DNA from: an uncultured bacterium
GTDB taxonomy: Bacteria > Deinococcota > Deinococci > Deinococcales > Trueperaceae
Length of the DNA: 24,801 nucleotides
Direction: 5' to 3'
Assembly (NCBI GenBank): GCA_964489965.1
Contig: CAZBBU010000001.1
Span: 1 to 24,801 of the forward strand
Shown here piece after piece: positions 2,733 to 20,244 of this stretch. The translations under genes were made by a program, and so were the position numbers. The notes under the pieces were generated by a model. The model saw only the letters and a list, made by a program, of their open reading frames with translations, ran no database searches and had not been told where the DNA came from. Each line of letters opens with the position of its first letter. Within the stretch, counting starts at the first letter, position 1.

Positions 2733-3751
2733 TACCTGAAGAGATGCATGCCGGCCGCTTCGAACGGCCCGGAGAGATCAAAGTCACCGGCGCCGCTGTG
2801 CCCGAACCGGGCCACGGCGAGGTGCTGATAGAGGTGGCACGCGCCGGAATCTGCGGCACCGACATTCACATCCTGAAGGGCGAGTACGAGCTGGCACGTT
2901 TCCCGCTCACGCCCGGCCACGAGTTCGCTGGCACCGTCGTCAGACTGGGACCCGGCGTGATCGAACGGCAGCTGGGCGAGCGCGTCACCGCCGACCCCAA
3001 CATCCCCTGCCTCACCTGCAGCGAATGCCACCGCAGCGCCTTCAACCAGTGCCTGAATCTGCAGGTCGCTGGCGTCACGCGTGACGGCGCCTTCGCCCGC
3101 TACCTGGTGCTGCCCGAACGGGTCGTCTACCCGATAGGCGACATACCTTTCGCAGAGGCCGCCCTGATAGAGCCACTGGCCTGCGTGGCCTGGGGTTTGA
3201 AGCGCATCCGCATCTTCGCTGGTGACACTGCGCTGGTGTTCGGCGCCGGACCGATGGGCTGCCTGCTGCTTCAGGCGGTGAAGTCCGCCGGCGCCAGCCG
3301 CGTGGCCATCGTGGACCTGGAGGCGGGACGCCTGAAACTGGCCCGGGAGCTTGGCGCTGACCTTGCCATCACCCCGGGTGAGCTGGAGCAGCTTGAGGAG
3401 TTCGCCCCGCGTGGCTTCGAGCTCGTTGCCGATGCCACCGGCGTGCCCAGTGTGCTGTCGGGCGCCATCAGGCATGCGCGTGCCGGCGGCACCATCTGGG
3501 CGTTCGGCGTCGCGCCGGATGATGCCCTGATGCAGGTCAGCCCCTACGAGTTCTTCCGCCGTGACCTCTCACTGGTTGGCTCGTTCGCAGTGAACAACAC
3601 CTTCATGGAAGCCATCAACCTGATCGCCACCGGCGCGGTGAAGGTCGCTCCGCTGGTATCACACGTTCTGCCCATCAGCCAGCTGGAGGAAGGCATGCGC
3701 CTGGCCCAGCATGACCCTGATCGCATGAAGGTGCAGTTCGACCTGTCATGA
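2729..3751 (+). CDS. Zn-dependent medium-chain (polyol/sorbitol-type) dehydrogenase
   Basis: Real start is GTG2729 (GTGA overlap, GGAG upstream) or ATG2744, not 1847. GICGTDIH, GHE, structural-Zn CLTCSEC..NQC, catalytic Glu (IEPLAC), GAGPMG. Confidence 0.88.
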   Translation: MIPEEMHAGRFERPGEIKVTGAAVPEPGHGEVLIEVARAGICGTDIHILKGEYELARFPLTPGHEFAGTVVRLGPGVIERQLGERVTADPNIPCLTCSECHRSAFNQCLNLQVAGVTRDGAFARYLVLPERVVYPIGDIPFAEAALIEPLACVAWGLKRIRIFAGDTALVFGAGPMGCLLLQAVKSAGASRVAIVDLEAGRLKLARELGADLAITPGELEQLEEFAPRGFELVADATGVPSVLSGAIRHARAGGTIWAFGVAPDDALMQVSPYEFFRRDLSLVGSFAVNNTFMEAINLIATGAVKVAPLVSHVLPISQLEEGMRLAQHDPDRMKVQFDLS

Positions 3752-4713
3752 AGCGCGCCGTCATCCGGGCCGAAGGCGTCCTCGAGCTCGAGGAGGTGAC
3801 CCTGCCGGAAGTCCCGGCCAGGGGCTCCGTACGGCTCGAACCGATCGCCATCGGCATCTGCGGCTCCGACCTGCACGTGCTGGCCGGCCACCACCCGTTC
3901 GTCACTTACCCGGTCTATCCGGGACACGAAGTACTGGCCCGGGTAAGCCGGCTTGGCGAAGCCGTGGATCCCGACTGGTCGGACCAGCGGGTGGTGCTGG
4001 AGCCGTCCCTGTACTGTGGTGACTGCGCTGCCTGCCGGCGCGGTGATTACAACATCTGTGAGGAACTGAAGGTAATGGGCTTTCAGGTGCCGGGTGGAAT
4101 GGCTGGCGCCTTTGACGCCCCGGTTGACCGGCTGCACCGCGTTCCTGACGCACTGCCGGACGATGCCGCCGTGCTGGCGGAGCCACTGGCAGTGGCCACC
4201 CACGCCGTCAGGCTGGCCGGGCCAGCCGGGCGGGCGGCGGTCGTCGGCGCCGGCACCATCGGCCTGCTCTGCGCCATCGCCCTCACCCACGCCGGCTCGA
4301 GCGTCACTGTCTTTGACCCTGATGAGCGGCGCCGGCGACTGGCCGCCGAGCTGGGCTTCGCCACGGGCGAGGCGCCGGCTGAGCGGGAGTTCGACCTGGC
4401 GTTCGAGTGCGTGGGAGTTCAGGCTGCCTTACGCAGCGCCATCAGCAGCGTACGCAAGGGTGGCACCGTGCTGGTGGTGGGCGTGCACGGCAGCGACCCC
4501 GCGATACAGGCGGGGCTGGTTCAGGACTTTGAGCTGCGCCTGCAGGGCAGCCTCATGTACACGTCAGAGGATTACCGTTCGGCGTTCGAACTGCTGGAGG
4601 CGTTCGATACCAGCCGGCTGCTGAGTGACCGCTACCCGCTGGAACAGCTGGCAGCTGCCTTCGAACGCGCTGCAGCCGGAGGTGACACCATCAAGGTACT
4701 GCTGACCACCTGA
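3748..4713 (+). CDS. Second Zn-dependent medium-chain dehydrogenase (sugar/polyol/idonate-type)
   Basis: ATGA overlap; [34 protein letters not shown]. Confidence 0.88.
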
Positions 4714-4792
4714 CCTTCCCGCTGCCAGCCACCGCCGGAGAATGAACTCAGCGGTCGTGTGTGAGCCGCCTCATCTGCTCCAGCCTGCGCGT

Positions 4793-4833
4793 TATCCTCG
4801 GCACCAGTGCCCTTCGGGGCGCGTACGGGAGGA
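4793..4833 (+). promoter_or_regulatory. Putative -10 (TATCCT), 5' UUCG hairpin and SD for dut
   Basis: TATCCT 4793-4798; GTGCCC-TTCG-GGGCGC 4807-4822; GGGAGGA 4827-4833; GTG at 4841. Confidence 0.5.
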
Positions 4834-4840
4834 CGCCACT

Positions 4841-5275
4841 GTGCAGGTGAAGATAAGAAGGTTGCGTGACAGCGCCAGGCTGCCTGAGTACCAGACGGAA
4901 CAGGCCGCGGGCATGGACCTGGCGGCTGACATTGACGTGCCGCTGGTGCTGGCACCGGGCGAACGTCGGGGCATTCCCACTGGCCTGGCCATCGCCCTGC
5001 CGGCCGGCTGTGAGGCTCAGGTGCGGGGGCGCAGCGGCCTGGCCATCCGGGCTGGCGTGACCATGGCCAACGGCGTGGGCACCATCGATGCCGATTACCG
5101 CGGTGAGATCAAGGTGCTGCTCATCAACCTCGGCAGCGAACCGTTCACGGTTGAACCCGGCATGCGCGTCGCGCAGCTGGTGGTGGCCCGCTTTGAGCGG
5201 GTCGACTGGGCCGAAACCTCAGAACTCGATGACACCGCCCGTGGCAGAGGCGGCTTTGGCCATACCGGCACCTGA
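4841..5275 (+). CDS. dut: dUTP diphosphatase (trimeric dUTPase)
   Basis: All five motifs present: [43 protein letters not shown]4841 with SD preferred over ATG4742. Confidence 0.95.
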
Positions 5276-5319
5276 GCGCGGGAAGGCTTGATGATCATGC
5301 AGTTTGAGACGGAACGTTC

Positions 5320-5814
5320 ATGGGAATAAAGCAAGTTCGGGAACACCTGGCCAGGTTCGGCCAGGACGACCGCATAGTCGAGTTCGAAACCTCGAGCTCC
5401 ACCGTGGAGCTGGCGGCACAGGCGCTGGGGACCGAGCCGGCCCGCATCGCCAAGACCCTGGCCTTCCTGAACGGGGCTGACGAGAACCACGCCGTCCTGG
5501 TTGTGGCCGCCGGTGACGCCCGCCTTCACAGCGGCTCCTTCAAGCGCGCCTTCGGCTTCAAAGCCCGCATGCTGCCCGCCGATCTGGTGGAGCCGCTCAC
5601 CGGCCATCCCGTGGGCGGCGTATGCCCCTTCGCCAACCCTGACGGTACCCGCGTGTACCTTGATGAATCACTGAAGCGCTTCACGACCGTCTATCCGGCA
5701 GCAGGCAGCACCAACTCGGCGGTAGAGATGAACCTGCAGGAGCTCGAGGAGGCCAGCGGTGCGGCCGGCTGGGTGGACGTGACCCGCGTTCCCGGCGAGG
5801 CTGGGCAGAGCTGA
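5320..5814 (+). CDS. YbaK/EbsC family aminoacyl-tRNA deacylase-like protein
   Basis: TVELAAQALG, IAKTLAF, GHPVGGVCPF, VYLDESL, AAGSTNS motifs. Confidence 0.88.
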   Translation: MGIKQVREHLARFGQDDRIVEFETSSSTVELAAQALGTEPARIAKTLAFLNGADENHAVLVVAAGDARLHSGSFKRAFGFKARMLPADLVEPLTGHPVGGVCPFANPDGTRVYLDESLKRFTTVYPAAGSTNSAVEMNLQELEEASGAAGWVDVTRVPGEAGQS

Positions 5815-5864
5815 CCCGCAGCTGACCCTGTATGCGTATCCTGCCGGCAGGTGCTGCGCCGCGG

Positions 5865-5888
5865 CATAATGGCACTATCTCTGGAGGA
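5865..5888 (+). promoter_or_regulatory. Putative -10 (CATAAT) and SD for the Fe-type ABC genes
   Basis: CATAAT 5865-5870, GGAGGA 5883-5888, ATG5892; no clear -35. Confidence 0.45.
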
Positions 5889-5891
5889 ATC

Positions 5892-6860
5892 ATGCGCCAC
5901 GCAATCACCATCACCACCTTGCTGCTGCTCGGGACCACCCTGGCCCAACCCAGCGGCACCCTCAGGCTCTACACTTCCCAGCCCGACGCTGACGCTGCCG
6001 CAACGGCCGAGGCCTTCGAGGCCGCCAACCCCGGTGTCGAGGTCCAGGTGTTCCGTTCCGGTACCGAACAGGTGATCGCCCGCTTCCTGCTGGAAGCGGA
6101 GGCCGGCGAACCGCAGGCTGACGTGCTGCTGCTCGCCGACGCCCCCACCTTCGAGCTGCTCAAGGAGCGCGAACTGCTGCAGGCCCATCAGCCCAGCGGC
6201 AGCGTTGTGGACAGCAACTGGTTCGATCCGGATGGCTACTGGTTCGGGACCAAGGCCATGGCCACCCTGATCACCTACAACACCGACCTGATCAGCGAGC
6301 CCGTGACCAGCTGGGCGGAACTCGCAGCGCTGCCCGGCGGACAGGTCATCCTGCCGAGCCCGAACTACTCGGGAGCGGCCGCATACAACCTGGGCGTGCT
6401 GACCCGTGACGCCCGGATCGGCTGGGAGTTCTACGAGACCCTGGCCCAAAGTGACGTGACCCTGGTACAGGGCAACGGCGCAGTCCTGCGCGGAGTGGCC
6501 GAGGGCGAGATGCCTTATGGCATGGTGGTCGATTACCTGCCGCTGCGCGCGATGGCCGACGGGTCACCTGTCGGCGTCGTCTACCCGGAAGAGGACGTGC
6601 CGGTGATCACGGAGCCTGCCGCCATTGTGGCCGGCACCCCCAACCTCGAGGCCGCACAGGCCTTCATAGACTTCCTGGTTTCCGAGGCCGGCCAGCAGCT
6701 GACCGTGGACCTGGGTTACCTTCCGCTCAGCGACGCGGTGGCACCGCCCGCCGGCTTCCGGCCGCTCAGTGAATTCACCGTCCTGGAAGCCGATGCTGCC
6801 GACCTTGCCGCCACGCGCGAGGCCGACAAGGAGCGGTTCGCCGAGCTGTTCGGCGAGTAG
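5892..6860 (+). CDS. ABC transporter substrate-binding protein, FbpA/AfuA (Fe3+/anion) cluster; substrate uncertain
   Basis: Signal peptide MRHAITITTLLLLGTTLA|Q; LYTSQ, FRSGTE, DVLLLAD, YSGAA, GNG, GMVVDY, PVITEP motifs. Confidence 0.8.
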   Translation: MRHAITITTLLLLGTTLAQPSGTLRLYTSQPDADAAATAEAFEAANPGVEVQVFRSGTEQVIARFLLEAEAGEPQADVLLLADAPTFELLKERELLQAHQPSGSVVDSNWFDPDGYWFGTKAMATLITYNTDLISEPVTSWAELAALPGGQVILPSPNYSGAAAYNLGVLTRDARIGWEFYETLAQSDVTLVQGNGAVLRGVAEGEMPYGMVVDYLPLRAMADGSPVGVVYPEEDVPVITEPAAIVAGTPNLEAAQAFIDFLVSEAGQQLTVDLGYLPLSDAVAPPAGFRPLSEFTVLEADAADLAATREADKERFAELFGE

Positions 6861-6862
6861 AT

Positions 6863-8560
6863 TTGCCAGTCCTCGCCGCCGAAACGCCTGCACGCAACCT
6901 GCGGCGGCGCATCCTGAGTCCCATCGGCATCGCGCTGATGGGACTGCTGCTGTTTCTGGCCTTCAGCAGTGCCCTGCCCCTCGGCAGGCTGCTGCTGCGC
7001 GGACTGACCGCAGACGCCCTCGGTTGGGTGCTGGAGAACAGCCAGTCACTGCGGGCGCTGGGCAACACGCTGCGGGTATCCGTCCTGGTCTCACTGCTGG
7101 CCACCGGTTTCGGCACCATGCTGTCACTGCTGCTCGAGAGGTTCCGAGTGCCCGGCGGCTCAGCGCTGCGCGTGATGATCATGCTGCCGCTGGTCGTGCC
7201 GCCCCACATCCTGGCACTGGCCTGGCTCAGCTGGCTGGGGCAGCGTGGACACCTGAGCCGCCTGCTGGCTGACCTGTTCGGCCTGGAACGCGTGCCCTGG
7301 AGCCTGTACGGCGAACCCGGCATAGTCCTGCTGCTCACCGTCTTTGCCCTGCCCGTGGCCTACCTGACCGTGGCGGCGGGCCTGAGCCGCCTGCCGGCCA
7401 ACCTGGATGAGGCCGCGCAGATCGAAGGCGCGGGCGCCTGGCAGATCATGCGTTTCATCACCCTGCCGCTCCTGCGGCCGCACCTGCTGGCAGCCATGAT
7501 GCTCGCCTTCCTGGCGGCGGCCGGCAACTTCGGCATCACTGCGCTGCTGGGTATACCGGGTCGCTTCATCACCCTGCCCACACTCATCTACCAGCGGGTG
7601 ACCAGCTTCGCCAGCGGCGGGCTGGGGCACGCCGCTGCATTGGCGCTGCTGCTGGCTCTGGTGGCCTCTGTGGCGCTGCTGGTGCAATACAGGCTGAACA
7701 GCCGTTCCTCACAGGTGGAATCGCAGTTGGAGCGGCGCCGGAAGTTGCCGCTCAGCGGGTCCTGGCGCTGGCTGACGGCTCTTGTGTGGCTGGCCTCGCT
7801 GCTCATGGCCGTGGGGCCGTTCGTGGCGCTGGTTCTCACCAGCCTGATGAGGGCGTACGGTCTGCCGCTTGAACTGGCCAGCCTGGACCTGCGCCACTAT
7901 CAGTTCGTGCTGACCGAACTGCAGTCGTTCCCGCGGGCACTCGGCAACAGCCTGCTGCTCGCCACGCTGGCCAGCATCATCGCGGCGGGGCTGGCGACGC
8001 TGCTGGGTTACGTGCTGCTGCGGCTGAGGCGTGGGAGCTGGCTGTTGCAGCTGTTGGTTGACTTGCCCTACGCGCTGCCGGGCATCGTGTTCGCCCTGTC
8101 GCTCATCCTCGCCTGGCTGCCCTCGCCACTGCCGTTCGTGCGTGTGTACGGCACGCTGTGGCTGCTTGGCATCGCCTACGTGGGCCATTACCTGGCGTTC
8201 GCACTGCAACCGATCCAGGCGGCCTGGCGACAGTTGGACCCAAGGCTGGAGGAGGCCGCACAGCTGGATGGCGCCAACCTGCTGCAGACCATCCGCTGGG
8301 TGCTGCTGCCGATGCTGGCGCCAACCGTGGCGGTGGCGACCCTGCTTGTGTTCCTGAGCGCGGTTTCGGAGATCTCACTGTCGGCGCTCCTTGCCGGATC
8401 CGGAACGGAGACGGTGGGCTGGCTGATATTCGGGTTGGAGCAGGCCGGCACGGGTCAGCAGGCCGCGGCGCTGTCAGTTGTCCTGCTGCTTCTGCTCGGA
8501 GTGGTGGCGCTGCTTGCCTGGGCCGCGGGACGGGTGCAGGCGGCGCGCAGCGGCGCCTAG
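6863..8560 (+). CDS. Iron-type ABC transporter permease (FbpB-like, two fused TM repeats)
   Basis: TTG start 2 nt after the SBP stop; two EAA loops (LDEAAQIEGAG, LEEAAQLDGAN); about 12 TM segments. Confidence 0.88.
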   Translation: MPVLAAETPARNLRRRILSPIGIALMGLLLFLAFSSALPLGRLLLRGLTADALGWVLENSQSLRALGNTLRVSVLVSLLATGFGTMLSLLLERFRVPGGSALRVMIMLPLVVPPHILALAWLSWLGQRGHLSRLLADLFGLERVPWSLYGEPGIVLLLTVFALPVAYLTVAAGLSRLPANLDEAAQIEGAGAWQIMRFITLPLLRPHLLAAMMLAFLAAAGNFGITALLGIPGRFITLPTLIYQRVTSFASGGLGHAAALALLLALVASVALLVQYRLNSRSSQVESQLERRRKLPLSGSWRWLTALVWLASLLMAVGPFVALVLTSLMRAYGLPLELASLDLRHYQFVLTELQSFPRALGNSLLLATLASIIAAGLATLLGYVLLRLRRGSWLLQLLVDLPYALPGIVFALSLILAWLPSPLPFVRVYGTLWLLGIAYVGHYLAFALQPIQAAWRQLDPRLEEAAQLDGANLLQTIRWVLLPMLAPTVAVATLLVFLSAVSEISLSALLAGSGTETVGWLIFGLEQAGTGQQAAALSVVLLLLLGVVALLAWAAGRVQAARSGA

Positions 8561-9354
8561 CGCGGCCTGACCGTCAGTATCTGCGAGAAGCTTCCGAACG
8601 GTCCCTGCTCGTCATGCAGCACACTTTCGGTCAGCCCCACGCCGCTCGGGCCGTATGACTGGACGGAGTCGAGGCCCGTGAACTCGCCGACTGGTTCGCG
8701 GTACAGGTGTGCGGTCAGGTCCAGGTTGGGAAAGGCCACCTCTTCCGGTGCTGCACGCGCGGCCACTCCGTTGGCCACGTCGATGAGGCGCAGCATCCGT
8801 GCTGTGGGGCTCACTTCCTCGCCTGCCAGCAGCTCCACGTCACTGCGCAGCCAGTACTGCACCCGGCCGGGGCCCAGTCTGTGCTGCCAGATCTGCGCTG
8901 CCTTGACGAATCCCCCGGGCCAGTGACTGTTGGGCCAGCGTTCCATCTGCTCCCTTGGCGGCAGTGGGGCGAAGGCCGAACCGGCGTGAGCTGCGCTGTC
9001 AAAGCGGGCGGACAGCCAGGCGCGGGCCAGCACGGCCGTTCGTCCACCGTGGCTCATGCGCACCTCAACCAGTTCGATGGTGCGGCCGGGCCGGATGACT
9101 TCGACCTGGATGTCGACTGACTCCATCGGAATCGTACCCAGGATGTCACAGGACAGCCGCACGAGCTGCAGTTCGTCCGGGCGCCTCTTCGCCATGTCAA
9201 GCTGCACGACGTGGGCGAGCAGGCCGATGCTTGGTGCTATGTGCTGTTCGTTGGGATTCCAGCCGCCACCAACGTGAATTGTTGGCCTGAAGCGGGATTC
9301 TGACTCGCGTACAAAGTATGCTGCTCTCTCGGTGCTTCCGGGTTGCTGTATCAT
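8557..9354 (-). CDS. Thioesterase-like double hot-dog family protein
   Basis: GGWNPNEQH, RLSCDILG, RPGRTIELVE, DVANG, FPNLDLTAHLYREP motifs; SD GGAG upstream; shares a CTAG stop overlap with the permease. Confidence 0.8.
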   Translation of the reverse strand: MIQQPGSTERAAYFVRESESRFRPTIHVGGGWNPNEQHIAPSIGLLAHVVQLDMAKRRPDELQLVRLSCDILGTIPMESVDIQVEVIRPGRTIELVEVRMSHGGRTAVLARAWLSARFDSAAHAGSAFAPLPPREQMERWPNSHWPGGFVKAAQIWQHRLGPGRVQYWLRSDVELLAGEEVSPTARMLRLIDVANGVAARAAPEEVAFPNLDLTAHLYREPVGEFTGLDSVQSYGPSGVGLTESVLHDEQGPFGSFSQILTVRPR

Positions 9355-9444
9355 CCTGCTGGCTCCAGTGTCAGTCTAGCCGGAACGGCGAAGCTGGACC
9401 AAGACAGTCGGAGGCCCGGCCATCAAGAAGGGCACCAGGTAACA

Positions 9445-11016
9445 ATGTCTTCAGCCAGAAGTTCCTCAAACCCCAACGCAGGCAACATCGGCCTCATCTT
9501 CGTCACGCTGATAATCGTGATGCTTCTTGCCTCGTTGAGCCAGATGGTGCTTTCCAGCGCCTTGCCCACCATCGCCGGCGAGTTGCACAGCGTGGAGCTG
9601 ATGCCCTGGGTGATCACCGCCTACATGCTGAGCACCACGGTGATGATGCCCATCTACGGCAAGCTCAGTGACCTGCTCGGCCGCAAGCCATTGTTGCTGG
9701 CCGCGATCCTGGCGTTCGTGCTCGGTTCGGTGCTGGGTGGCCTGGCTCCCGACATGATCACGCTGATCATCGCCCGCGCCATCCAGGGACTGGGTGGCGG
9801 TGGCCTCATAATCCTGTCCCAGGCCGCCATCGCCGACGTGGTGCCGGCCCGTGACCGCGGCAAGTACATGGGCATCATGGGCGGGGCCTTCGCCTTCTCC
9901 AGCGTCGCCGGTCCGCTGCTCGGTGGCTGGATCACCGAAGGTCCCGGCTGGCGCTGGGCCTTCTGGATGAACGTGCCGTTGGGCGCCATCGCCCTGGTCG
10001 CCACCGTGATGCTGCTGAAACTGCCGGCCGTGCAGCGTGCCGTGCGGCCCAGCATTGACTACCTGGGCATGATGCTTCTGGTTGTGCAGACGGCCGCTGT
10101 CGTGTTGATAGGCACCTGGGGCGGATCCGTCTACGAATGGGATTCGCCGGTAATCCTGGGGCTGGCGACGGTACTGGTTGTGGCCGTGATCGCGTTCATC
10201 CATGTGGAGTCACATGCCGTTGAACCAGTGATGCCGATGTTCATGTTCCGTGAACGCAACTTCGTGCTGACCACCATCTCTTCGCTGCTCGTGGCACTCG
10301 CGATGTTCGGGGTGGTCGGTTACATGCCCACCTACTTCCAGATGGCGGTTGGCGCCAGCGCCACGGTGGCGGGACTGCTCATGGTGCCGATGATGGCCTG
10401 CATGCTGATCACTTCGATCGGCACGGGAGTGATGGTGTCCCGGTCGGGTCGTTACAAAACCATCCCCATCGTCGGGGCGTTGATCCTGACTGCCGGCGTG
10501 GCCCTGCTGTCCACAGTGCAGGCGGGAACCAGCGTGGTGCTGATCTGCGTTTTCATGGCGCTGATCGGCGTGGGCCTGGGCGCCAACATGCAGATCCTGA
10601 CCCTGATTGTTCAGAATACGTTCCGCCACGAACTGGTCGGCACGGCCACCGCAGCCAACAACTACTTCCGGCAGGTGGGCAGCAGCCTGGGCGCCGCTGT
10701 GGTGGGTGCGGTGTTCACCGTCAGGCTGACAAGCCTGCTGCAGGAGAGGTTGCCGGCAGGAGCCGCTCCTGCCGATGGCGCCAGCTCACTGACGCCTGCC
10801 TTCGTGCTGTCACTGCCTGAGGGCATCCGCAGCATCATCGTGGGCGCCTACAATGACGCACTGATTCCAGTTTTCGTTTACATGTTCCCGCTGGGTGTCA
10901 TCACTGCCGTGCTGCTGTGGTTCATGCATGAGAAGCCACTGGCCACCAAGGTGGAGCGTGAAGTCGGTGCGCCGCCGGCGTCCGGCGAGCGGCTGGCCAC
11001 CCGTTCAGCTGACTGA
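9445..11016 (+). CDS. DHA2 (EmrB/QacA-type, 14-TMS) MDR efflux MFS transporter
   Basis: SALPTI..EL, motif A GKLSDLLGRK, ARAIQGLGGGG, GPLLGGWIT, WRWAFWMNVPLG. ATG9445 preferred over 9343. Confidence 0.9.
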   Translation: MSSARSSSNPNAGNIGLIFVTLIIVMLLASLSQMVLSSALPTIAGELHSVELMPWVITAYMLSTTVMMPIYGKLSDLLGRKPLLLAAILAFVLGSVLGGLAPDMITLIIARAIQGLGGGGLIILSQAAIADVVPARDRGKYMGIMGGAFAFSSVAGPLLGGWITEGPGWRWAFWMNVPLGAIALVATVMLLKLPAVQRAVRPSIDYLGMMLLVVQTAAVVLIGTWGGSVYEWDSPVILGLATVLVVAVIAFIHVESHAVEPVMPMFMFRERNFVLTTISSLLVALAMFGVVGYMPTYFQMAVGASATVAGLLMVPMMACMLITSIGTGVMVSRSGRYKTIPIVGALILTAGVALLSTVQAGTSVVLICVFMALIGVGLGANMQILTLIVQNTFRHELVGTATAANNYFRQVGSSLGAAVVGAVFTVRLTSLLQERLPAGAAPADGASSLTPAFVLSLPEGIRSIIVGAYNDALIPVFVYMFPLGVITAVLLWFMHEKPLATKVEREVGAPPASGERLATRSAD

Positions 11017-11499
11017 TTCGGTTTCGGAAACGCCCAGGAAACTGCGGTTGTGATAGATAAGGGCGTCACTCCTGGGCCCCCGCAGTACGGACAGCACTTC
11101 GGCTGCCACGATCGTGCTGCTGCCGACCCGGATCCGCTGCAGGACCCTGGTCCGCAGGCCATAGGGAGCAGACGGCAGGTACGGTTCGCCGGTCGGAAGA
11201 ACGTCCCAGCCCTGTTCCTCTGAGAAGCGGATGCCGTCCGGCCTGGCGAAGTTGTCCGCCAGCTCGGCGTGCTCCGTTCCCAGCAGGTGAACCATGAAAC
11301 CATCAGCGCGCAGCAGGGCTGCCTGCGTGCCTGTCTCACGTGAAACATTGAAGGTGAGGGCCAGTGGCTCGAGCGTCAGTGACGCCAGGCTGGAAATGGT
11401 CATGCCCACCGGATTGCCATCCACTGTGGCGGCCACAATGGCCACCCCGGCCGGATGGCTCCTGAAGGCGTCACGAAACTTGTCAACCGTGCTTGGCAT
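11005..11499 (-). CDS. Flavin reductase family protein (HpaC/ActVB/RutF-like fold)
   Basis: FRDAFRSHPAGVAIVAA, GMTISSLASLTLEP, LIYHNRSF; SD AAGGGAG upstream. Confidence 0.88.
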   Translation of the reverse strand: MPSTVDKFRDAFRSHPAGVAIVAATVDGNPVGMTISSLASLTLEPLALTFNVSRETGTQAALLRADGFMVHLLGTEHAELADNFARPDGIRFSEEQGWDVLPTGEPYLPSAPYGLRTRVLQRIRVGSSTIVAAEVLSVLRGPRSDALIYHNRSFLGVSETESVS

Positions 11500-11548
11500 T
11501 TCTACTGGCTCCCTTGAACGCGGGCGGACGCACCTCCACCCGGAATAG

Positions 11549-11579
11549 AGTGTAAAACCTCAAGTGCACTTGAGGTCAA
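11549..11579 (-). promoter_or_regulatory. MerR-type SoxR-activated promoter for the flavin reductase
   Basis: Minus strand TTGACC (11579-11574), 19-nt spacer, TACACT (11554-11549). The 19-nt spacing is the hallmark of MerR-family activation. Confidence 0.9.
11557..11576. promoter_or_regulatory. SoxR operator (SoxR box)
   Basis: Perfect 20-bp palindrome ACCTCAAGTGCACTTGAGGT, matching the CCTCAAGT-N2-ACTTGAGG SoxR consensus. Confidence 0.93.
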
Positions 11580-11598
11580 GCGGTTGCGGTACTACAAT
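11570..11598 (+). promoter_or_regulatory. soxR promoter overlapping the operator (autorepression, leaderless mRNA)
   Basis: TTGAGG 11570-11575, 17 nt, TACAAT 11593-11598, then 5 nt to ATG11604. Confidence 0.75.
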
Positions 11599-11603
11599 GA
11601 GCC

Positions 11604-12083
11604 ATGACCGACGACCGGACAGGTGAGTACGCAGCCGACCAGCTGCTGGCCATCGGCGAAGTCAGCGAACGCACCGGAGTGGCACGCTCGGCGCTTCACT
11701 ACTACGAGGAACTGGGACTCATCCAGTCGTATCGCACCACCGGCAACCAGCGCAGATACCCCCGCCACATGCTGCGGCGCATCTCGCTGGTCACGGTGGG
11801 TCGGCGCCTGGGCATCGGCCTGGACGGCATCCGCACCGCCCTGGAAGACGTGCCCATGCAACACAGGCCCACCGATGAGGATTGGCGGCGCGCCTCGCGG
11901 GAGTGGATGCGGGTCCTGGAAGTGCGCCGCAAGGCGATCGAGGAACTGGAAGACCAGCTGCTTGGCTGCATCGGCTGTGGTTGCCTGTCGATGAAGGCGT
12001 GCGCGCTGGTGAACCCCGATGACCAGCTGGCAGAAGAAGGCTCGGGCGCCAGGATGCTGGAAGCTGCAGCGGAACTGGACTGA
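11604..12083 (+). CDS. soxR: Redox-sensitive transcriptional activator SoxR
   Basis: MerR HTH (IGEVSERTGVARSALHYYE), RTTGNQRRY, [2Fe-2S] motif CIGCGCLSMKAC. Confidence 0.96.
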   Translation: MTDDRTGEYAADQLLAIGEVSERTGVARSALHYYEELGLIQSYRTTGNQRRYPRHMLRRISLVTVGRRLGIGLDGIRTALEDVPMQHRPTDEDWRRASREWMRVLEVRRKAIEELEDQLLGCIGCGCLSMKACALVNPDDQLAEEGSGARMLEAAAELD

Positions 12084-12108
12084 CCGCGAGCGAGAAGGAG
12101 GCAGGGAG

Positions 12109-13263
12109 ATGGACTCTTACGATTATCTGCTGGTTGGCGGCGGCATGGCTGCCGACGCGGCAGCACGGGGCATACGCGAGGTCGACAGTGGCGGCAGCAT
12201 CGGCCTCTTCAGCGCCGAAACCCACGCGCCTTACAACAGGCCGCCCCTCTCCAAGGGACTGTGGCAGGACCAGACGCCGGACGAGATCATGCGTGATACG
12301 GGCGACCTGGGCGTGCACATGCACCTCAGCACCCGCATCGAAACAGTCGACGCGGCCGCCCAGACTGTGACCGACGACCAGGGCCGAACCTGGCACTACG
12401 GAAAGCTGCTCCTGGCCACCGGCGGAAGCCCCAGGCGCCTCACCGGGCCTGACGAGGGCGTCATCTACTACCGCACGCTGGCCGACTATCACCGGCTCCG
12501 CGAGCTGACTTCCGAACCGCGCCGCGTGCTCGTGCTCGGCGGTGGTTACATCGGCGCTGAACTCGCCGCGGCGCTGCGGCTCAACGGCCACGAGGTGCAG
12601 ATCGCCTTCCCTGAGCAGACACTGTTGGGGCGGATTCTGCCTGATGATCTGGGCGAGTACCTGAACAGCTATTACGGGGAGAAGGGCGTGGAAGTGCTGC
12701 CTGGCCGGCTGGTTGAAGCCGTGCATCAGACGGGCGCGCACAGTCGTGTCACGTTCAGTGACGCCAGCGAGGCTGAGGCGGACGTGGTGGTGGCCGGCCT
12801 CGGCATCATCCCGGAGCTGGAACTCGCCAGGCAGGCTGGCCTGACGCTCGACAACGGCATCGAAGTGGACCAGGACATGCGCAGCAGCGACCCGCACATC
12901 TTCGCTGCGGGCGACGTAGCCAGCGTCTGGAGTCCCGCCCTGAAACGGCGGCGGCGCGTGGAACACGAGCAGAACGCCAACGAGACCGGCCTGCACGCGG
13001 GGATGGCCATGGCCGGCGCAAGCGCACCGTACCGGAAGCTGCAGCTGTTCTACTCCGACCTGTTCGACCTGGGTTTCGAAGGCGTTGGCCTGGCGGACCG
13101 CAACCTGGAAACGGTGGCCCGCTGGAGCGAACCGTTCAGGAAAGGCACCATCCACTACCTGGAGGACGGCCGCCTCGTGGGCGCCCTGATGTGGAACGAC
13201 TGGGGCAAGGCCGACCGCATGCGCGAGCTGATCACGTCAGGAGCACCGTTCAAGCGGGACTGA
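12109..13263 (+). CDS. FAD/NAD(P)H oxidoreductase, ferredoxin-reductase/MDHAR/AIF-like
   Basis: VGGGMAA, RPPLSKG, LLATGG, GGGYIGAE, IFAAGDVA, RVEH motifs; SD-rich stretch upstream of ATG12109. Confidence 0.88.
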   Translation: MDSYDYLLVGGGMAADAAARGIREVDSGGSIGLFSAETHAPYNRPPLSKGLWQDQTPDEIMRDTGDLGVHMHLSTRIETVDAAAQTVTDDQGRTWHYGKLLLATGGSPRRLTGPDEGVIYYRTLADYHRLRELTSEPRRVLVLGGGYIGAELAAALRLNGHEVQIAFPEQTLLGRILPDDLGEYLNSYYGEKGVEVLPGRLVEAVHQTGAHSRVTFSDASEAEADVVVAGLGIIPELELARQAGLTLDNGIEVDQDMRSSDPHIFAAGDVASVWSPALKRRRRVEHEQNANETGLHAGMAMAGASAPYRKLQLFYSDLFDLGFEGVGLADRNLETVARWSEPFRKGTIHYLEDGRLVGALMWNDWGKADRMRELITSGAPFKRD

Positions 13264-13276
13264 GTTCGCATGGACG

Positions 13277-13336
13277 CCGGATTGACGGCCCGGAAGTAGC
13301 ATGCGGCAGTTCAGGCATCACGGGCCGTCAACCCGG
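13277..13336. repeat. 16-bp inverted repeat (1 mismatch), 28-nt spacer
   Basis: CCGGATTGACGGCCCG (13277-13292) and CGGGCCGTCAACCCGG (13321-13336), 13 nt after the oxidoreductase stop. Confidence 0.7.
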
Positions 13337-13348
13337 GAAGGATCATCA

Positions 13349-14017
13349 ATGAACTACCGTCACAGAATGCTCCAGCTGATTGCACTCACCGTCCTGTTAC
13401 TGGCAGGCAACTCACTTGCACAGACCATCCACCAGACGGGCAGCGTCGAAGGGACCATCGGCGGAAACAGCTATCACGCGTACACATACGCCACCGAGGT
13501 TCCCGAAGATGCGGCCGAAGGCCTGGAGGACGGTGCCGTCAAGGACATGGTGGCCGCAGCAGCAGGCACCACCCAGCACTCCGCCACCTTCAACCTCATG
13601 GACGCCGTGATGATGGGCACGGTGGAGCTCCTGCCCCCGACCATCTTTGTAACGATACTGACCAGGACTGAAAACGCCGAAGACCGCGAGCACGGCCGGA
13701 TCGACATCGATTTCTCGCTGGATCCGGAAACCCTCACGCTGAAGGGCGCAGATGACATCGCCGTGGACTGGCACCCGGGCGAACCGGACCTGAAGGAACG
13801 CTACACCCTCACGGACGGAAGCCTGGTGCTGGACAGCATCACCGTGGTGGACGAGAACACACTGGCCATCACCGGTTCGATAAGCGGCCAGCTCAGCTGG
13901 CAGACGGATTACTCACCCGAGCACAACCCTGACGATGTTCTGGACGTGGATCTTACCTTCAGCATCGAACAGGTGGTGCAGTCCGGCTCCGCCCTGGACC
14001 TGATAATGGGCATGTAA
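13349..14017 (+). CDS. Secreted hypothetical protein (acidic, Thr-rich)
   Basis: Sec-type signal MNYRHRMLQLIALTVLLLAGNSLA|Q; host-like codon usage; no family recognised. Confidence 0.75.
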   Translation: MNYRHRMLQLIALTVLLLAGNSLAQTIHQTGSVEGTIGGNSYHAYTYATEVPEDAAEGLEDGAVKDMVAAAAGTTQHSATFNLMDAVMMGTVELLPPTIFVTILTRTENAEDREHGRIDIDFSLDPETLTLKGADDIAVDWHPGEPDLKERYTLTDGSLVLDSITVVDENTLAITGSISGQLSWQTDYSPEHNPDDVLDVDLTFSIEQVVQSGSALDLIMGM

Positions 14018-14042
14018 GACCAGCCGCAAGCTAGCATTGGGC

Positions 14043-14930
14043 ATGACCAAAAAAGACCTGTCCGTCGCATTCCTGGGCCTGGGCACCATGGGACTGCCGA
14101 TGGCCGGACGCCTGCTGGATGCCGGCTTCACGACCACCGTCTGGAACCGCACCGCCGGCAAGGCCGAAGCCCTGGCCACTTCCGGCGCGACCGTCGCTGA
14201 CTCCCCCGCCGCTGCCGCACGGGACGCCGACATCGTAGTGGTGATGGTTTCTGACACGCCCGACGTCGAGGAGGTCGTGTTCGGACCGGCCGGCGCCGCA
14301 AACGGCCTGCGGTCCGGGGCACTGCTGGTGGACATGAGCACCATCTCGCCCGCCGCCACCCGCGGCTTTGCCAGCCGAGTTGCGGCAGGCGGTGCCAGCT
14401 GGCTGGATGCCCCGGTGTCCGGCGGCAGCGAGGGCGCGCAGCAGGGCACTCTCTCCATCATGGTTGGCGGCGAGGCGAAAGACCTCGAGCGGGCCCGTCC
14501 GGTACTGGAGGTGCTGGGCCGCACCATCACCCACGTGGGACCAAGCGGCGCCGGCCAGGTCACCAAAGCCATCAACCAGGTACTGATCGCCGGCACCTAC
14601 GCGGCAGTGGCTGAAGGTGTGGCCCTGGGGCTGCGCTCGGGGATAGACATGCACGCGGCCCTGAAGGCAGTCGCTGGTGGGGCGGCCGGCTCATGGATCC
14701 TGGACAACCGCGCCGGAAACATGGTGCGCGGCGAGTACCCCCTGGGCTTCAAGGTTGAACTGCACCGCAAGGATCTGGGCATCGCCCTCACGGAAGCGCG
14801 GGAACTGGGCGTGCCACTCACGGTCAGCGCCCTGGTGGAGCAGTGGGAGACCGGCCTGATCAGCCAGGGCCACGGAGACGATGACGTGTCAGCCATCGCC
14901 CGGATAGTACGGGACCTGGCGGGCCTCTGA
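14043..14930 (+). CDS. NAD(P)-dependent beta-hydroxyacid dehydrogenase (3-hydroxyisobutyrate dehydrogenase/tartronate semialdehyde reductase family)
   Basis: GLGTMG, VDMSTISP, DAPVSGG, catalytic Lys in VTKAINQ, KDLGIAL. TAGCAT lies 5 nt before ATG14043. Confidence 0.92.
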   Translation: MTKKDLSVAFLGLGTMGLPMAGRLLDAGFTTTVWNRTAGKAEALATSGATVADSPAAAARDADIVVVMVSDTPDVEEVVFGPAGAANGLRSGALLVDMSTISPAATRGFASRVAAGGASWLDAPVSGGSEGAQQGTLSIMVGGEAKDLERARPVLEVLGRTITHVGPSGAGQVTKAINQVLIAGTYAAVAEGVALGLRSGIDMHAALKAVAGGAAGSWILDNRAGNMVRGEYPLGFKVELHRKDLGIALTEARELGVPLTVSALVEQWETGLISQGHGDDDVSAIARIVRDLAGL

Positions 14931-16169: not shown

Positions 16170-17633
16170 TCAGAGCGGGCGCCCGGCCTCGAGTACCCTG
16201 GAGCGCTCCAGCAGCCCTTCGCTCTCCACGTTCAGACCGGTCAGCTCAACCGGAACCGAAGCCTTGCGGAAGCCCTTGACCACAGCCTCGAGCGCGGCGG
16301 TGGCCGAGCTGTCCCACACGTGACTTGCCCTCAGGTCAAGCACCACCCGCTTCAGCCCCTTCTCATCGAAGTCAAAGGCATTCACGAAGTCCTCGGTGGC
16401 CACGAAGAACAGCTGGCCCCTCACGTGGTAGGTGCGGGTACCGTCCTTCAGGGTGCTGCTGACCTGGAACTGCTTGGACACCTTGCGGACGAAGAAGACC
16501 GCGCTGAGAATCACGCCCACGACCACGCCGAGTGCCAGGTTGCCTGTGATGACGACGACCGCCATCGTCACCAGCAGTACTATCGTGTCGCTCTTCGGTT
16601 GCCTCAGCATGCGTGGCAACGAGTACCAGTCAAAGGTCTGAATGGCCACGATCATCATGACGGCGGCCAGTGCCCCAATGGGAACCCGGCTCACCCAGGG
16701 CGTCAGCAGCAGGATGAGCACCATCAGGTACACCCCGGTGGCAAGTGACGACAGACGGCCCCGGCCTCCGGAGCGGATGTTGATGACGGACTGGCCGATC
16801 ATGGCGCAGCCTGCCATGCCGCCGAAGAAGCCACTGACGATGTTGGCGATGCCCTGCCCACGCGCCTCTGCGTTCTTGTTGCTGGGGGTGCCGGTCATCT
16901 CGTCCAGCAGCTGCGCCGTGAGCAGTGATTCGAAGAGACCGACGAACGTCAGTGTGAAGGCCAGGGGCAGCAGGATCATCAGCGTTTCGAGTGTGAAGGG
17001 CACCTGCAGCATCTGGAATGAGGGCAGCGTGGTGGGCAGTTCCCCCATGTCACCGACCGTCTGCACGTTCCAGCCGGTCAGGGCGGTCATGACGGTCAGC
17101 ACCACGATCGCGACCAGCGGCGCAGGCACGGCCTTGACCACCCGGGGCAGCAGCAGGATTATGGCGATGCCAGTGGCCACCACCACATAGGTATGCCAGC
17201 CTGCGTCCCTGAACACGTTCAGCTGCGAGATGAAGATCAGTATGGCCAGCGAGTTGACGAAGCCGGTCATCACGCTGCGGGGCACGAACTTCAGGTAACG
17301 GCCGAACCTCAGAACACCGAACAGCAGCTGGATCAGGCCCGTCAGCACGGTTGCGGCCAGCAGGTAGTCAAGGCCGTGTTCCCGCACGAACAGCACCATC
17401 ACCAGGGCCATGGCGCCCGCACCGCCACTGATCATGCCCGGCCGCCCGCCGGTGAAGGCGATCACGACCGAGATGATGAACGAGGCGTACAGCCCCACCT
17501 TCGGGTCAACTCCCGCGATGATGGCGAAGGCGATCGTCTCGGGGATCAGCGCCAGGGAGGTCACCAGGCCGGCGACCAGGTCGCCACGCACATTGCCGAA
17601 CCATTCCCGGCGGATGTAACTGGCAAGAATCAC
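16170..17633 (-). CDS. SulP family inorganic anion permease with C-terminal STAS domain
   Basis: [53 protein letters not shown] and STAS. GTG17633 has GGAG 5 nt upstream. Confidence 0.93.
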
Positions 17634-17729
17634 TTGTACTCCGTTCCAAAGAGCAATTCCGCAGGGGTCGATGCAGCGGATGAGCTTTGCTGTTTTCAAC
17701 TGTGAATGGGGCGCCCGGCCCGGGCCGGC

Positions 17730-17792
17730 ACGCAACGTCGCCAATTATGCGTCAGGCAACTTCAGAACTCAAGCGGTTTGCCGACGTTGCGT
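17730..17792. repeat. 15-bp inverted repeat (1 mismatch), 33-nt spacer, enclosing the sulP promoter
   Basis: ACGCAACGTCGCCAA (17730-17744) and TTGCCGACGTTGCGT (17778-17792). Confidence 0.7.
17744..17772 (-). promoter_or_regulatory. Putative sigma70 promoter for sulP
   Basis: Minus strand TTGAGT (17772-17767), 17 nt, CATAAT (17749-17744). Confidence 0.6.
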
Positions 17793-17796
17793 CACG

Positions 17797-18480
17797 TCAG
17801 CGAGGCCTGCTGGCCCTGAGCATCTGCCGCTTGCCGCCTGGCGGCCCGGGCAGGCGCTGCACGACCAGGCCCAGCCGTTCCAGCGTGCGCCGCACCTCGC
17901 CTTTGACCGAGTAACTGACCAGTATCCCGCCCGGTTTCAGGCTGGACACCAGGCTGCCCAGGAACTCTTCGGTCCACAGCTCACTGTTGGCTTCCGGGCT
18001 GAAAGCGTCGTGATAGACGGCATCGGCCCAGGCCAGCGGCAACCTCTGCCGCTCGGCGGCTCCCAGAAGCAGCCTCAGCGTCACGTTCGGGGCCAGTTGC
18101 AGCCGGACGCTGCCCGTGTCCGGCAGATCCGCGCGCTGAACCAGGTAGCTGTCCAGCACTTGCGGGTCACGCAAGTGACGAGCGTAATCGCAACTGGCGA
18201 CGTCGTCAGCTGCAAGCAGGTCATGCTCCAGCGACAGGTACTCGAGCCTGGTGCCGGTCGCGGTGGCCGCATCCGCACTGAGCCAGAAGTTCAGTCCCGT
18301 GCCGAAACCGACCTCCAGGACCCGGCTGGGACTGCCGGCTGCCAGGCGTTCGCCAAGGCCTGAGGCTTCCAGGAACACGTGCTTCGACTCCGTCACCGCG
18401 CCGTGCAGCGAATGGTACGCCTGTCCGTACCGCTCGCTGTGCAGGGTGAGGCTGCCGTCACCGGTCGTCTTGAGTCCCAT
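17797..18480 (-). CDS. mnmD: tRNA mnm5s2U34 methyltransferase MnmD (stand-alone MnmC N-terminal domain)
   Basis: TGDGSLTLHSERYGQAYHS, ESKHVF, VLEVGFGTGLN, DAFSPEANSELW, PGPPGGKRQMLRA. Confidence 0.9.
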   Translation of the reverse strand: MGLKTTGDGSLTLHSERYGQAYHSLHGAVTESKHVFLEASGLGERLAAGSPSRVLEVGFGTGLNFWLSADAATATGTRLEYLSLEHDLLAADDVASCDYARHLRDPQVLDSYLVQRADLPDTGSVRLQLAPNVTLRLLLGAAERQRLPLAWADAVYHDAFSPEANSELWTEEFLGSLVSSLKPGGILVSYSVKGEVRRTLERLGLVVQRLPGPPGGKRQMLRASRPR

Positions 18481-18526: not shown

Positions 18527-19603
18527 TCAGACACTCACCGGGTTCGGGATGGTCCGGCAGATCGGGTTCGTGCAACCCGGGCAGCGCAGTGAGTACTGCC
18601 GGGTGGCGACCTCGCCGCTCTGCAGATGCGCATGCACCGTCTCCGCCAGCGCGTCCATGAACCTGGGTTCCCCGTTCATCGCTGGGGCGCGCCTGAAGCC
18701 GGTCATGCCGTGCTTCCGGGCCAGCTCGGCGTACTCGATGTCCAGTTCACTGAGCGTCTCGATGTGGTCGCTGGTGAAGGCTATGCCGACCACCAGCACG
18801 TTCTTGCGGCCTTTCCTGGCGAGTTCCTCGATGACCGACTCGGTCGAGGGCCCCAGCCACGGCACCGGACCCACCTCCGACTGGTAGCTGATCATGTGCT
18901 GGTTCGCATCGCCCAGGAGTTTCATGACCTCGGAGACACTGGCGCCGATCTCGGCCGGGTAGGTGTCACCACGGTTGATGACGCTCAGGGGCAGGGAATG
19001 TGCACTGAAGAGCAACAGCACGTCGTCGCGCTGGTCTTCCGGGTACTGTTCGAGTCCCTTCCTTACGCTGTCCGCCATCGCTTCGATGAAGCTCTCCTGA
19101 ACAGGCCAGCGGTCGATGACGCTCCATCTGAACTTGCGGGCCATGCCGAGCTTGCTGAGTGCGCGCCAAAGTTCGTTCAGTGACGAGCCGGTGGTGGCGC
19201 AGGAGAACTGCGGGTACTGCGTGAAGGCGACGGCACGCTCCACGCCATCGTCCGCCATGGCCAGCAGCGCGTCGCGGCTGGTGGGGCTGGCGTAGCGGAA
19301 GGCGACGCAGAAGCCGTGCGGCGCGGTTTCAGGACTCAGCCGGTCCAGCCGTTCGACCATGCCACGGCCCTGCAGTTCCGTCCAGTCCAGGATCGGCGAG
19401 CCGCCACCGATTCCCCGGTACAGGTCCTGCACGTGCCGCGTTCTGCGCCTGGCGATGAACGGGCCGAGGTACTTCTGCATCGGCAGCTGGATAATCTCCT
19501 TGTCCGCGAACAGTTCCAGCAGGAAAGGGCCCACGTCGTCAACAGTCTTGGGGCCACCCAGGTTCATCATCACGATTCCGGTCTTGACTTTTCCGTTGTT
19601 CAT
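18527..19603 (-). CDS. hemH: Ferrochelatase with animal/fungal-type [2Fe-2S] ligands
   Basis: NLGGP, IGGGSPI, QYPQFSCATTGSS, FSAHSLP, GPVPWLGP, FTSDHIETL, C-terminal CPGCTNPIC. ATG19603 with SD GGAG preferred over 19627. Confidence 0.95.
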   Translation of the reverse strand: MNNGKVKTGIVMMNLGGPKTVDDVGPFLLELFADKEIIQLPMQKYLGPFIARRRTRHVQDLYRGIGGGSPILDWTELQGRGMVERLDRLSPETAPHGFCVAFRYASPTSRDALLAMADDGVERAVAFTQYPQFSCATTGSSLNELWRALSKLGMARKFRWSVIDRWPVQESFIEAMADSVRKGLEQYPEDQRDDVLLLFSAHSLPLSVINRGDTYPAEIGASVSEVMKLLGDANQHMISYQSEVGPVPWLGPSTESVIEELARKGRKNVLVVGIAFTSDHIETLSELDIEYAELARKHGMTGFRRAPAMNGEPRFMDALAETVHAHLQSGEVATRQYSLRCPGCTNPICRTIPNPVSV

Positions 19604-19752
19604 CCCAGCACTCCACTCAATCGGCACTGTGGCCAGTCTGCCGTCAAGCCTAGTGGTGCGCGGCCAGGGTGGTTGTCACAGTTGTGTTTGCGGGGATGTA
19701 CCGTGACACTCCCATGACATGGCGTGCGTCACCCAGCACCTAGGATGAGTCA

Positions 19753-20244
19753 GTGCATGATGGTCAACAACCGCAGGACCACGCGGCGGACCTGAGACTG
19801 GCCCGCAGCCGGCTCGCCCGGGGCATCTACCTGAGCCTCGGCCTGGTCTGTGTCGGCGCCGGCGTCATCGGCCTGTTCCTGCCGGGCTGGCCGACCACCA
19901 TCTGGCTGCTGATTGCCGCCTGGCTGTTCAGCCGCAGCAGCCCCAGGTTCTACGGCATGATCCTGAACCATAAGGTGTTCGGTCCGATCGTGCGTGACTA
20001 CCGGGCGGGCAACGGCGTACCGGTCCGCATCAAACTCATCGCCGCAGGCAGCATCGTCGTCTTCGCCGGTCTCAGTGTGGTGTTCCTGATCAGTAATCAC
20101 GTTGTGCAGCTGGTGGTTGTGGGCGTGGGCATGTTCGGGTGCGGCTTCATGTTCGGCCTGCCGACCCGCAGGCCCTACGAGGAGCTTGAGCCGGCACAGG
20201 CGCACCCGGCGCCGCTGATGACAAATGATTCAATCAGCCAGTGA
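19753..20244 (+). CDS. ybaN: YbaN/DUF454 family inner membrane protein
   Basis: GVIGLFLPGWPTTIWLLIAAWLFSRSSPRFY..ILNHKVFGP. TAGGAT lies 6 nt before GTG19753. Confidence 0.85.
   Translation: MHDGQQPQDHAADLRLARSRLARGIYLSLGLVCVGAGVIGLFLPGWPTTIWLLIAAWLFSRSSPRFYGMILNHKVFGPIVRDYRAGNGVPVRIKLIAAGSIVVFAGLSVVFLISNHVVQLVVVGVGMFGCGFMFGLPTRRPYEELEPAQAHPAPLMTNDSISQ

Follow-up and report, generated by a model that had tools for sequence, protein, structure and literature searches.

Why should a bacterium of the Deinococcota carry, detached from the rest of the haem pathway, a ferrochelatase that closely resembles the mitochondrial enzyme of animals and fungi? The question is raised by hemH, a gene on the reverse strand of a 24,801-nt contig (CAZBBU010000001.1, assembly GCA_964489965.1; the whole contig is called here the window) from a metagenome-assembled genome (MAG) of the family Trueperaceae. 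The MAG consists of 2.15 Mb in 475 contigs, the window being contig C1, and is 74% complete and 0.5% contaminated. An initial annotation of the window had pointed to the four cysteines of a [2Fe-2S] cluster, to a eukaryote-like clade relevant to the origin of mitochondrial ferrochelatase (FECH) and, if the host belonged to the Deinococcota, as it does, to an enzyme of an unexpected type. We propose, with a probability of roughly 0.7, that hemH encodes a functional protoporphyrin-type ferrochelatase (PpfC) of a clade shared by Gemmatimonadota and Trueperaceae, that it is the lone survivor of an eroded gene cluster and that its product would metalate imported protoporphyrin IX.

Sequence, fold and ligand set of the enzyme

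The hemH product is matched over its full length by PF00762 (349 bits, cut-off 27) and TIGR00109 (341 bits, cut-off 124.6). Among PDB sequences, phmmer aligned its residues 5–351 with human FECH (E 2e-129) and also matched yeast ferrochelatase (E 1e-95) and the coproporphyrin-type ferrochelatases (CpfC) of Bacillus subtilis and Listeria (E about 1e-32; 3e-32). The closest reviewed proteins are animal FECHs: identity to the query amounts to 53–54% for vertebrates (53% for the human protein), 50% for S. pombe, 49% for Drosophila, 48% for Dictyostelium and 45% for S. cerevisiae, against at most 43% for reviewed bacterial HemH proteins (Geotalea) and 25–26% for the CpfC structures. The segments of human FECH that the initial annotation had listed are all present in the query–human alignment (KTGILMLNMGGP, IGGGSPI, LSPNTAPHK, QYPQYSCSTTGSSLN, WSTIDRWP, FSAHSLPMSVVNRGDPYP, FTSDHIETLYELDIEY and CPLCVNPVCR), and its view of the protein as eukaryote-like agrees with these identities.

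Translation and alignment likewise confirmed the four proposed cluster ligands, C135, C341, C344 and C349 (human counterparts in Table 1); the only other cysteine, C99, lies outside the motif. The ligand spacing is C-x205-C-x2-C-x4-C, the human enzyme having x206 at the first interval because of a one-residue gap in the query–human alignment. All four ligand columns are invariant in alignment A1 (32 sequences). In the wider table of 84 aligned rows described below, the column of His202 holds His wherever a row has a residue (82 of 84 rows), and those of His280 and Glu282 hold the same residues in nearly all rows. Where B. subtilis has Tyr13 and human FECH has Met76, the query has Leu, and the CpfC outgroup from other Deinococcales families has Tyr.

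An AlphaFold model computed from alignment A1 (mean pLDDT 90) predicts the two-lobed, Rossmann-like fold of class II chelatases. It superposes on human FECH (2qd3) with a template modelling (TM) score of 0.94 and an rmsd of 1.8 Å at 53% identity, and on CpfC structures with TM scores of 0.76–0.80. Over the C-terminal 20 residues pLDDT is 52–62, as is to be expected when a ligand loop is modelled in the absence of its cluster.

Judged by sequence and model together, the hemH product is a PpfC-type ferrochelatase with the active-site set and the cluster-ligand set of the human enzyme. It is closer to characterized PpfC than to CpfC and lacks the Tyr at the Tyr13 site, and its relatives keep the genomic company of a PpfC: hemE, hemF, hemH and hemY occur together in the Trueperaceae genome G020, and ChdC is rare in the family. 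Assignment to CpfC is contradicted by the low identity, by the Leu at the Tyr13 site and by the fact that no ChdC was found in the host assembly. The protein can be predicted with high confidence to insert Fe2+ into protoporphyrin IX, and C135, C341, C344 and C349 are very probably the ligands of a bound [2Fe-2S] cluster.

A bacterial clade shared by Gemmatimonadota and Trueperaceae

A search of a 90%-cluster database with the query returned thousands of matches. The best 120 are 69–86% identical to it, except for one fish FECH model at 53%, and the named entries among these 120 are MAGs of Trueperaceae, Longimicrobiales or Gemmatimonadota. Relatives with the same motif and of the same clade, named by automatic annotation, are present in hundreds of Gemmatimonadales and Trueperaceae MAGs (65–86% identity); there hemH mostly forms part of a hem cluster that includes hemF and hemY, whereas the hemH of the window stands alone beside ybaN. 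With one genome taken per GTDB species, 282 relative loci were confirmed. The best 80 of them come mainly from Gemmatimonadales and Trueperaceae (58–76% identity), and nearly all full-length copies among these 80 carry the pattern R-C-(P/A)-G-C-x-N-x-x-C-R.

Within the GTDB family of the host, the same enzyme was found in 19 of 24 genomes. The copy in one of them, G010, agrees over its last 40 residues with an NCBI protein labelled Trueperaceae bacterium (P0064). The ferrochelatases of the other families of the order are only 24–30% identical to the query, lack the C-terminal extension and have Tyr at the Tyr13 site; they are of the CpfC type. A PpfC-type enzyme is therefore unexpected for the Deinococcota, as the initial annotation had held, yet it is the rule in Trueperaceae, where it occurs with HemF and HemY and without ChdC. 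The same annotation had stated that its interpretation would be undermined if the protein nested in a large, already described bacterial clade typical of the host phylum. This is largely what we observed: the clade is large (282 loci) and typical of the family, and as to its description, one Gemmatimonadetes C-terminal motif has been tabulated (PMC8529089).

Contamination by eukaryotic DNA was considered and rejected, the contig having 65% GC and a dense set of bacterial genes (SulP, MFS, S66 peptidase, YbaN); moreover, the same ybaN–hemH pair, with a hemH 81% identical, exists in G001, a genome of the same genus. Mis-binning from a Gemmatimonadota genome was rejected as well, since hemH falls with genomes of its own family in a Trueperaceae clade (support 98/96).

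Some database entries deserve separate mention. Two loci from oddly labelled MAGs, L064 (JAYTNY010000142.1, ‘Roseobacter sp.’) and L066 (JBBQST010000187.1, ‘Thermoflexales’), belong to the same ferrochelatase clade; they are 60–61% identical to the query and mutual sisters (100/100), and represent either a further lateral transfer or mis-binned contigs. P0014 (Acipenser sinensis, flagged ‘UNVERIFIED_CONTAM’ at NCBI) is an ordinary fish FECH of 526 aa with N-terminal exons repeated in the gene model, and seems to reflect mis-assembly of that model, not contamination from bacteria.

Relationship to mitochondrial ferrochelatase

The relevance of this clade to the origin of FECH, raised by the initial annotation, was supported by a maximum-likelihood tree and an approximately unbiased (AU) test. 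The tree was built with IQ-TREE (LG+C20+F+G4 by posterior mean site frequency) from 84 rows: representatives at 50% identity, gathered by an exhaustive HMMER search, named bacterial loci and named eukaryotes obtained by cluster look-ups and a second search (crayfish, a myxozoan, Fonticula, four fungi, Dictyostelium, two oomycetes, Guttulinopsis and the jakobid Andalucia). The outgroup consisted of four CpfC sequences, taken from other families of the Deinococcales. Gene context was used for five of the 50%-identity representatives, that of P0123 being uninformative.

A super-clade of 55 rows was recovered with support 99/97. P0137 branches first within it, followed by P0134 together with P0143; these three representatives are bacterial and lie in hemN-hemH-hemY or hemH-hemY operons. 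The remaining rows form two clades, one bacterial (97/87) and one eukaryotic (95/88), placed as sisters with support 89/46. The bacterial clade comprises Gemmatimonas, Gemmatimonadales, Trueperaceae and the two oddly labelled MAGs. The named Trueperaceae loci share the clade of the query; the family is monophyletic (98/96) and is weakly placed inside Gemmatimonadota (84/58), and because of this low support we name no donor for the Trueperaceae gene. One row of the eukaryotic clade, P0155, has a clearly eukaryotic gene context. The sampled alphaproteobacterial sequences form a clade of their own (100/100) outside the super-clade and lack Cys at three or more of the four aligned ligand columns. 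A tree constrained to unite them with the eukaryotes was worse by 78.9 log-likelihood units and was rejected (p-AU 1.5e-5).

The ligand cysteines follow the same partition. All four are present throughout the super-clade, in eukaryotes and bacteria, apart from budding-yeast-like sequences and a few fragments; the Cys135 column holds Cys in nearly the whole super-clade and not outside it, and the complete motif was not seen outside the super-clade among the 84 rows. Since eukaryotic and bacterial members alike have the cysteines and the motif is absent outside, it is an ancestral character of the super-clade and not a product of convergence.

An identity of 53–54% with vertebrate FECH and an identical cysteine motif, to which may be added that the jakobid FECH matches Gemmatimonadales enzymes as strongly as other eukaryotic ones, would also be expected if the bacterial clade derived from a eukaryotic FECH transferred into bacteria. 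The rooted tree speaks against this direction, as the eukaryotic clade excludes the bacterial one when CpfC is the outgroup, and the three further bacterial lineages with hem operons branch below both. The bacterial genes, besides, have no introns and no presequence and lie within bacterial hem operons. We regard a eukaryotic donor as very improbable.

Among the bacteria compared here, the Gemmatimonadota and Trueperaceae clade stands nearest to mitochondrial FECH, with moderate support. Several points count against placing more weight on this relationship. The support for the sisterhood itself is only moderate (89/46), and the rows of the eukaryotic clade are mostly metagenomic representatives without species names. 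The alphaproteobacteria are represented by six sequences, five of them loci that match peptide patterns taken from the query and the sixth a representative falling in the same group, and the groups compared in the AU test were set after the tree had been seen.

In the literature, the only link that we found between these ferrochelatases and eukaryotes is a one-line table entry: Weerth, Medlock and Dailey (2021; PMC8529089) tabulate one of two Gemmatimonadetes ferrochelatases with a C-terminal motif. They call for a broader data set and are silent on any affinity of this enzyme to animal FECH. Papers on the phylogeny of the eukaryotic haem pathway describe mitochondrial FeCH as ‘eukaryotic in origin’, with no bacterial group named as its sister. 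We also considered whether the HemF and HemY of the family are eukaryote-like. By their nearest structures they are not especially so: the closest to HemF is the bacterial 8t7w, with human CPOX matching at 3e-86, and the closest to HemY is the Myxococcus protoporphyrinogen oxidase 2ivd.

Probable replacement of the haem pathway in Trueperaceae

Among the 31 genomes of the family in which pathway genes were counted, the host included, ALAD was found in 26, HemY above its cut-off in 24 and HemF, often adjoining hemH, in 22, whereas ChdC was found in a single one (G049). A complete cluster of about 12 kb is present in G020 (positions 2705–14877 of locus L108, G020:C52:276000-292000), in the order hemA, hemC, hemD, hemB, histidine kinase, response regulator, hemE, hemF, SDR, hemH and hemY. 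It represents a protoporphyrin-dependent pathway. The histidine kinase and OmpR-type regulator embedded between hemB and hemE may control haem synthesis.

The genome with ChdC differs: in G049 (C1:936621-940671, partly within L100) chdC, a HemY/CgoX homologue and a CpfC-like gene lie side by side, and the ferrochelatase shares only 33% identity with the query. One genus thus seems to have kept the ancestral coproporphyrin route. For most sampled Trueperaceae, the simplest explanation is that this route was replaced through the lateral acquisition of a hem cluster. We suggest that the acquired cluster (hemA-C-D-B, the kinase/regulator pair, hemE, hemF, hemH and hemY) would have taken the place of CgoX, CpfC and ChdC, and would then have eroded in the lineage of the host, with a sister genus keeping only the kinase/regulator pair and hemH. 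In the host genus, hemH would have moved away from the cluster site to its present position beside ybaN.

An apparently lone hemH in the host genome

The host survey that the initial annotation had called for agrees with such an erosion; that the host would lack the remaining pathway genes had not been anticipated there. Hidden Markov model searches of the host assembly, itself 74% complete, found no ChdC, HemY, HemJ, HemF, UroD or ALAD. The only match to the HemN model (L082, G000:C175:1820-2341) is a radical-SAM protein scoring 85.7 bits against a cut-off of 325, and is probably not a coproporphyrinogen dehydrogenase but a haem chaperone of the HemW type, itself a radical-SAM protein. When the 11 proteins of the G020 cluster were used in tblastn searches of the host genome, hemH was the only one of the nine cluster enzymes to be found; the kinase/regulator pair was also matched, on contig C206.

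The former site of the cluster can be recognized in both the host and its next relative in the tree. In G018 (contig C24, 2658–9450; locus L001) the gene order is Pta, AI-2E transporter, histidine kinase, response regulator, hemH and MutS2, and the reading frames of the regulator and hemH overlap by 4 nt. Host contigs C94, C206 and C424 carry Pta, AI-2E transporter, histidine kinase, response regulator and MutS2, with only about 30 nt where hemH would be expected. This synteny is a direct view of the erosion of the hem operon. As an observation in its own right, the kinase/regulator pair outlives the hem genes: it precedes hemH in G018 and is followed directly by MutS2 in the host.

A fragmented assembly might be hiding the other genes, in which case hemH would be the ordinary terminal enzyme of a complete protoporphyrin-dependent pathway; with 74% completeness, 475 contigs and the hem genes of relatives gathered within about 12 kb, the failure of just one region to assemble could conceal them all. 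The relatives make this unlikely. ALAD and UroD, the two enzymes checked across the genus, were not found in any of its five genomes, two of which are 92% and 89% complete, and in G018 and G012 (96% and 97% complete) hemH is kept while ALAD, UroD, HemF and HemY were not found. Incompleteness alone is consequently an unlikely cause of the missing genes. The ancestral site, furthermore, is assembled in the host genome with the histidine kinase, the response regulator and MutS2 but no hem gene, and hemH lies on a 24.8-kb contig amid unrelated genes.

The retained gene is not decaying. All catalytic and ligand residues are intact, and hemH remains under purifying selection, pairwise dN/dS among the genes of the host, G001 and G018 being 0.17–0.26. 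The genus encodes haem-copper oxidase subunit I (COX1) and haem A synthase (CtaA), and therefore needs haem. Because the cell still has these proteins, the use of environmental protoporphyrin IX seems most likely: the retained enzyme would insert Fe2+ into it, and this salvage step would supply haem b for the oxidases and for haem A synthesis. That porphyrin is imported and not made by the host, with ferrochelatase as the salvage step, is a view that we hold with moderate confidence and slightly favour.

Selection on a ferrochelatase kept without its pathway could also point to another function, mainly the reverse reaction, in which a dechelatase would free iron from imported haem, or some other non-synthetic role. 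Reverse ferrochelatase activity has reportedly been proposed for the HemH of Haemophilus influenzae. Other dechelatases are known in haem-scavenging gut bacteria (PMC12583661), and this too counts in favour of a reverse function. However, no haem-uptake genes were found adjoining hemH in the window, the residues catalysing the forward reaction are all kept, and COX1 and CtaA need a supply of haem b; we consider a mainly reverse or non-synthetic role improbable.

The interpretation of hemH as a lone, functional salvage enzyme has to be weighed against several facts. The host MAG is incomplete and fragmented, hemH was found in only two of the five genomes of the genus, and no porphyrin or haem importer was identified. 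The dS values of the hemH comparisons are near saturation. Finally, cluster binding, the preferred porphyrin substrate and the reliance on exogenous porphyrin are all inferred.

In G012, another genome with hemH only, a 233-aa protein encoded at 3839–4540 (+) of locus L109 (contig C7) converges on hemH (4580–5740, −) and has a weak, sub-threshold match to Flavodoxin_5 (24 bits, cut-off 27), the domain family of the HemG-type protoporphyrinogen oxidase. This protein might act as a partner of hemH by oxidizing imported protoporphyrinogen.

The hemH locus

The positions of hemH, its key codons and its neighbours are given in Table 1. An in-frame GTG at 19627 is a possible alternative start that would add 8 residues, but ATG 19603 seems likelier given the GGAG at 7 nt and the agreement with the N-termini of relatives. 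Lying between ybaN and the MnmC-like gene, hemH may be co-transcribed with the latter and the SulP/STAS gene, an arrangement that is not conserved in G001. Across 20 related loci no neighbourhood conserved with hemH was found, except ybaN in G001, where the pair was detected by tblastn synteny with locus L111.

Table 1. Features of the hemH locus (window coordinates)
Feature	Position	Strand	Remarks
hemH coding sequence	18527..19603	−	Stop-free translation, 358 aa; predicted protoporphyrin-type ferrochelatase with C-terminal [2Fe-2S] extension
Shine-Dalgarno-like GGAG	19611..19614	−	Read from the sequence; spacer of 7 nt to ATG 19603
Cys135 codon	19199..19201	−	Aligned with human C196; putative internal cluster ligand, in QFSCATTGSS
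C341-x2-C344-x4-C349 (RCPGCTNPICR)	18557..18583	−	Aligned with human C403/C406/C411
C341 codon	18581-18583	−	
C344 codon	18572-18574	−	
C349 codon	18557-18559	−	
His202 codon (SAHSLP)	18998..19000	−	Equivalent of human catalytic His263
His280-Ile-Glu282 (SDHIETL)	18758..18766	−	Equivalents of human active-site H341/E343
ybaN (DUF454)	19753..20244	+	Divergent; Pfam PF04304; sole neighbour kept beside hemH in same-genus G001
MnmC-like SAM methyltransferase	17797-18480	−	PF05430; 46-nt gap after hemH, same strand
SulP/STAS transporter	16170-17744	−	Next after the MnmC-like gene, same strand as hemH

Comparison with known ferrochelatases

The closest characterized counterpart is human or animal FECH (PDB 1HRK, 2QD3), to which the query is similar across the catalytic core and the C-terminal extension alike, with the four cysteines aligned and equivalents of His263, His341 and Glu343; it differs in having no mitochondrial presequence, in carrying Leu for human Met76 and in lying on a bacterial contig. 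The CpfC type expected in Deinococcota, exemplified by B. subtilis HemH and Listeria monocytogenes CpfC, shares the class II chelatase fold but not the C-terminal extension, and its companion ChdC was not found in the host or in 30 of the 31 family genomes.

[2Fe-2S] ferrochelatases have been characterized in bacteria, namely in Caulobacter crescentus and Mycobacterium tuberculosis, with C-terminal ligands, and in Myxococcus xanthus, with an internal insertion (PMC8529089). The query resembles them as a bacterial ferrochelatase with a predicted cluster, but it lacks the insert that holds all four ligands in the Myxococcus type, and it differs from the sampled alphaproteobacterial enzymes in its position within the super-clade and in its ligand columns. 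Those bacterial clusters that have been studied are reported to far exceed the mammalian one in stability (PMC8529089).

As regards the retention of hemH without the upstream pathway in an organism that requires haem, which implies the use of exogenous protoporphyrin IX, the host is comparable to porphyrin or haem auxotrophs with a stand-alone ferrochelatase, such as Haemophilus influenzae. Phytomonas is another example (PMC4870792). These auxotrophs are host-associated, whereas the bacterium described here belongs to the Deinococcota and lives freely in the environment; its sister genera also allow the erosion of the operon to be followed step by step.

Significance

Taken by itself, the enzyme is unremarkable, one routine representative of a very large clade of bacteria. 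The value added by this analysis lies at the level of the clade, in its sisterhood to mitochondrial FECH, and in the steps by which the hem operon can be seen to have shrunk to a lone hemH under selection. Taken jointly, the data allow a tentative scenario, which we rate as possible and no higher than that: the mitochondrial type of FECH and its ligand set would stem from bacteria with hemN/hemH/hemY of the Gemmatimonadota type and not from the alphaproteobacterial ancestor; the enzyme and its cluster would later have replaced the coproporphyrin route in most sampled Trueperaceae; and several Trueperaceae with small genomes would now be porphyrin scavengers that keep only hemH.

The role of the ferrochelatase cluster is still elusive according to Weerth et al. 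(2021; PMC8529089). The bacterial clade offers stable, easily expressed stand-ins, 53% identical to human FECH and with the same ligand set, which could help to settle the purpose of the cluster. As the four-cysteine motif maps to one super-clade of eukaryotes and specific bacteria, to the exclusion of the sampled alphaproteobacteria, the origin of mitochondrial FECH becomes directly testable. Within Trueperaceae, a single family of the Deinococcota displays three present-day states of haem synthesis, namely the coproporphyrin route, the protoporphyrin route and a lone ferrochelatase, and the last of these points to cross-feeding on environmental protoporphyrin or haem among free-living aerobes.

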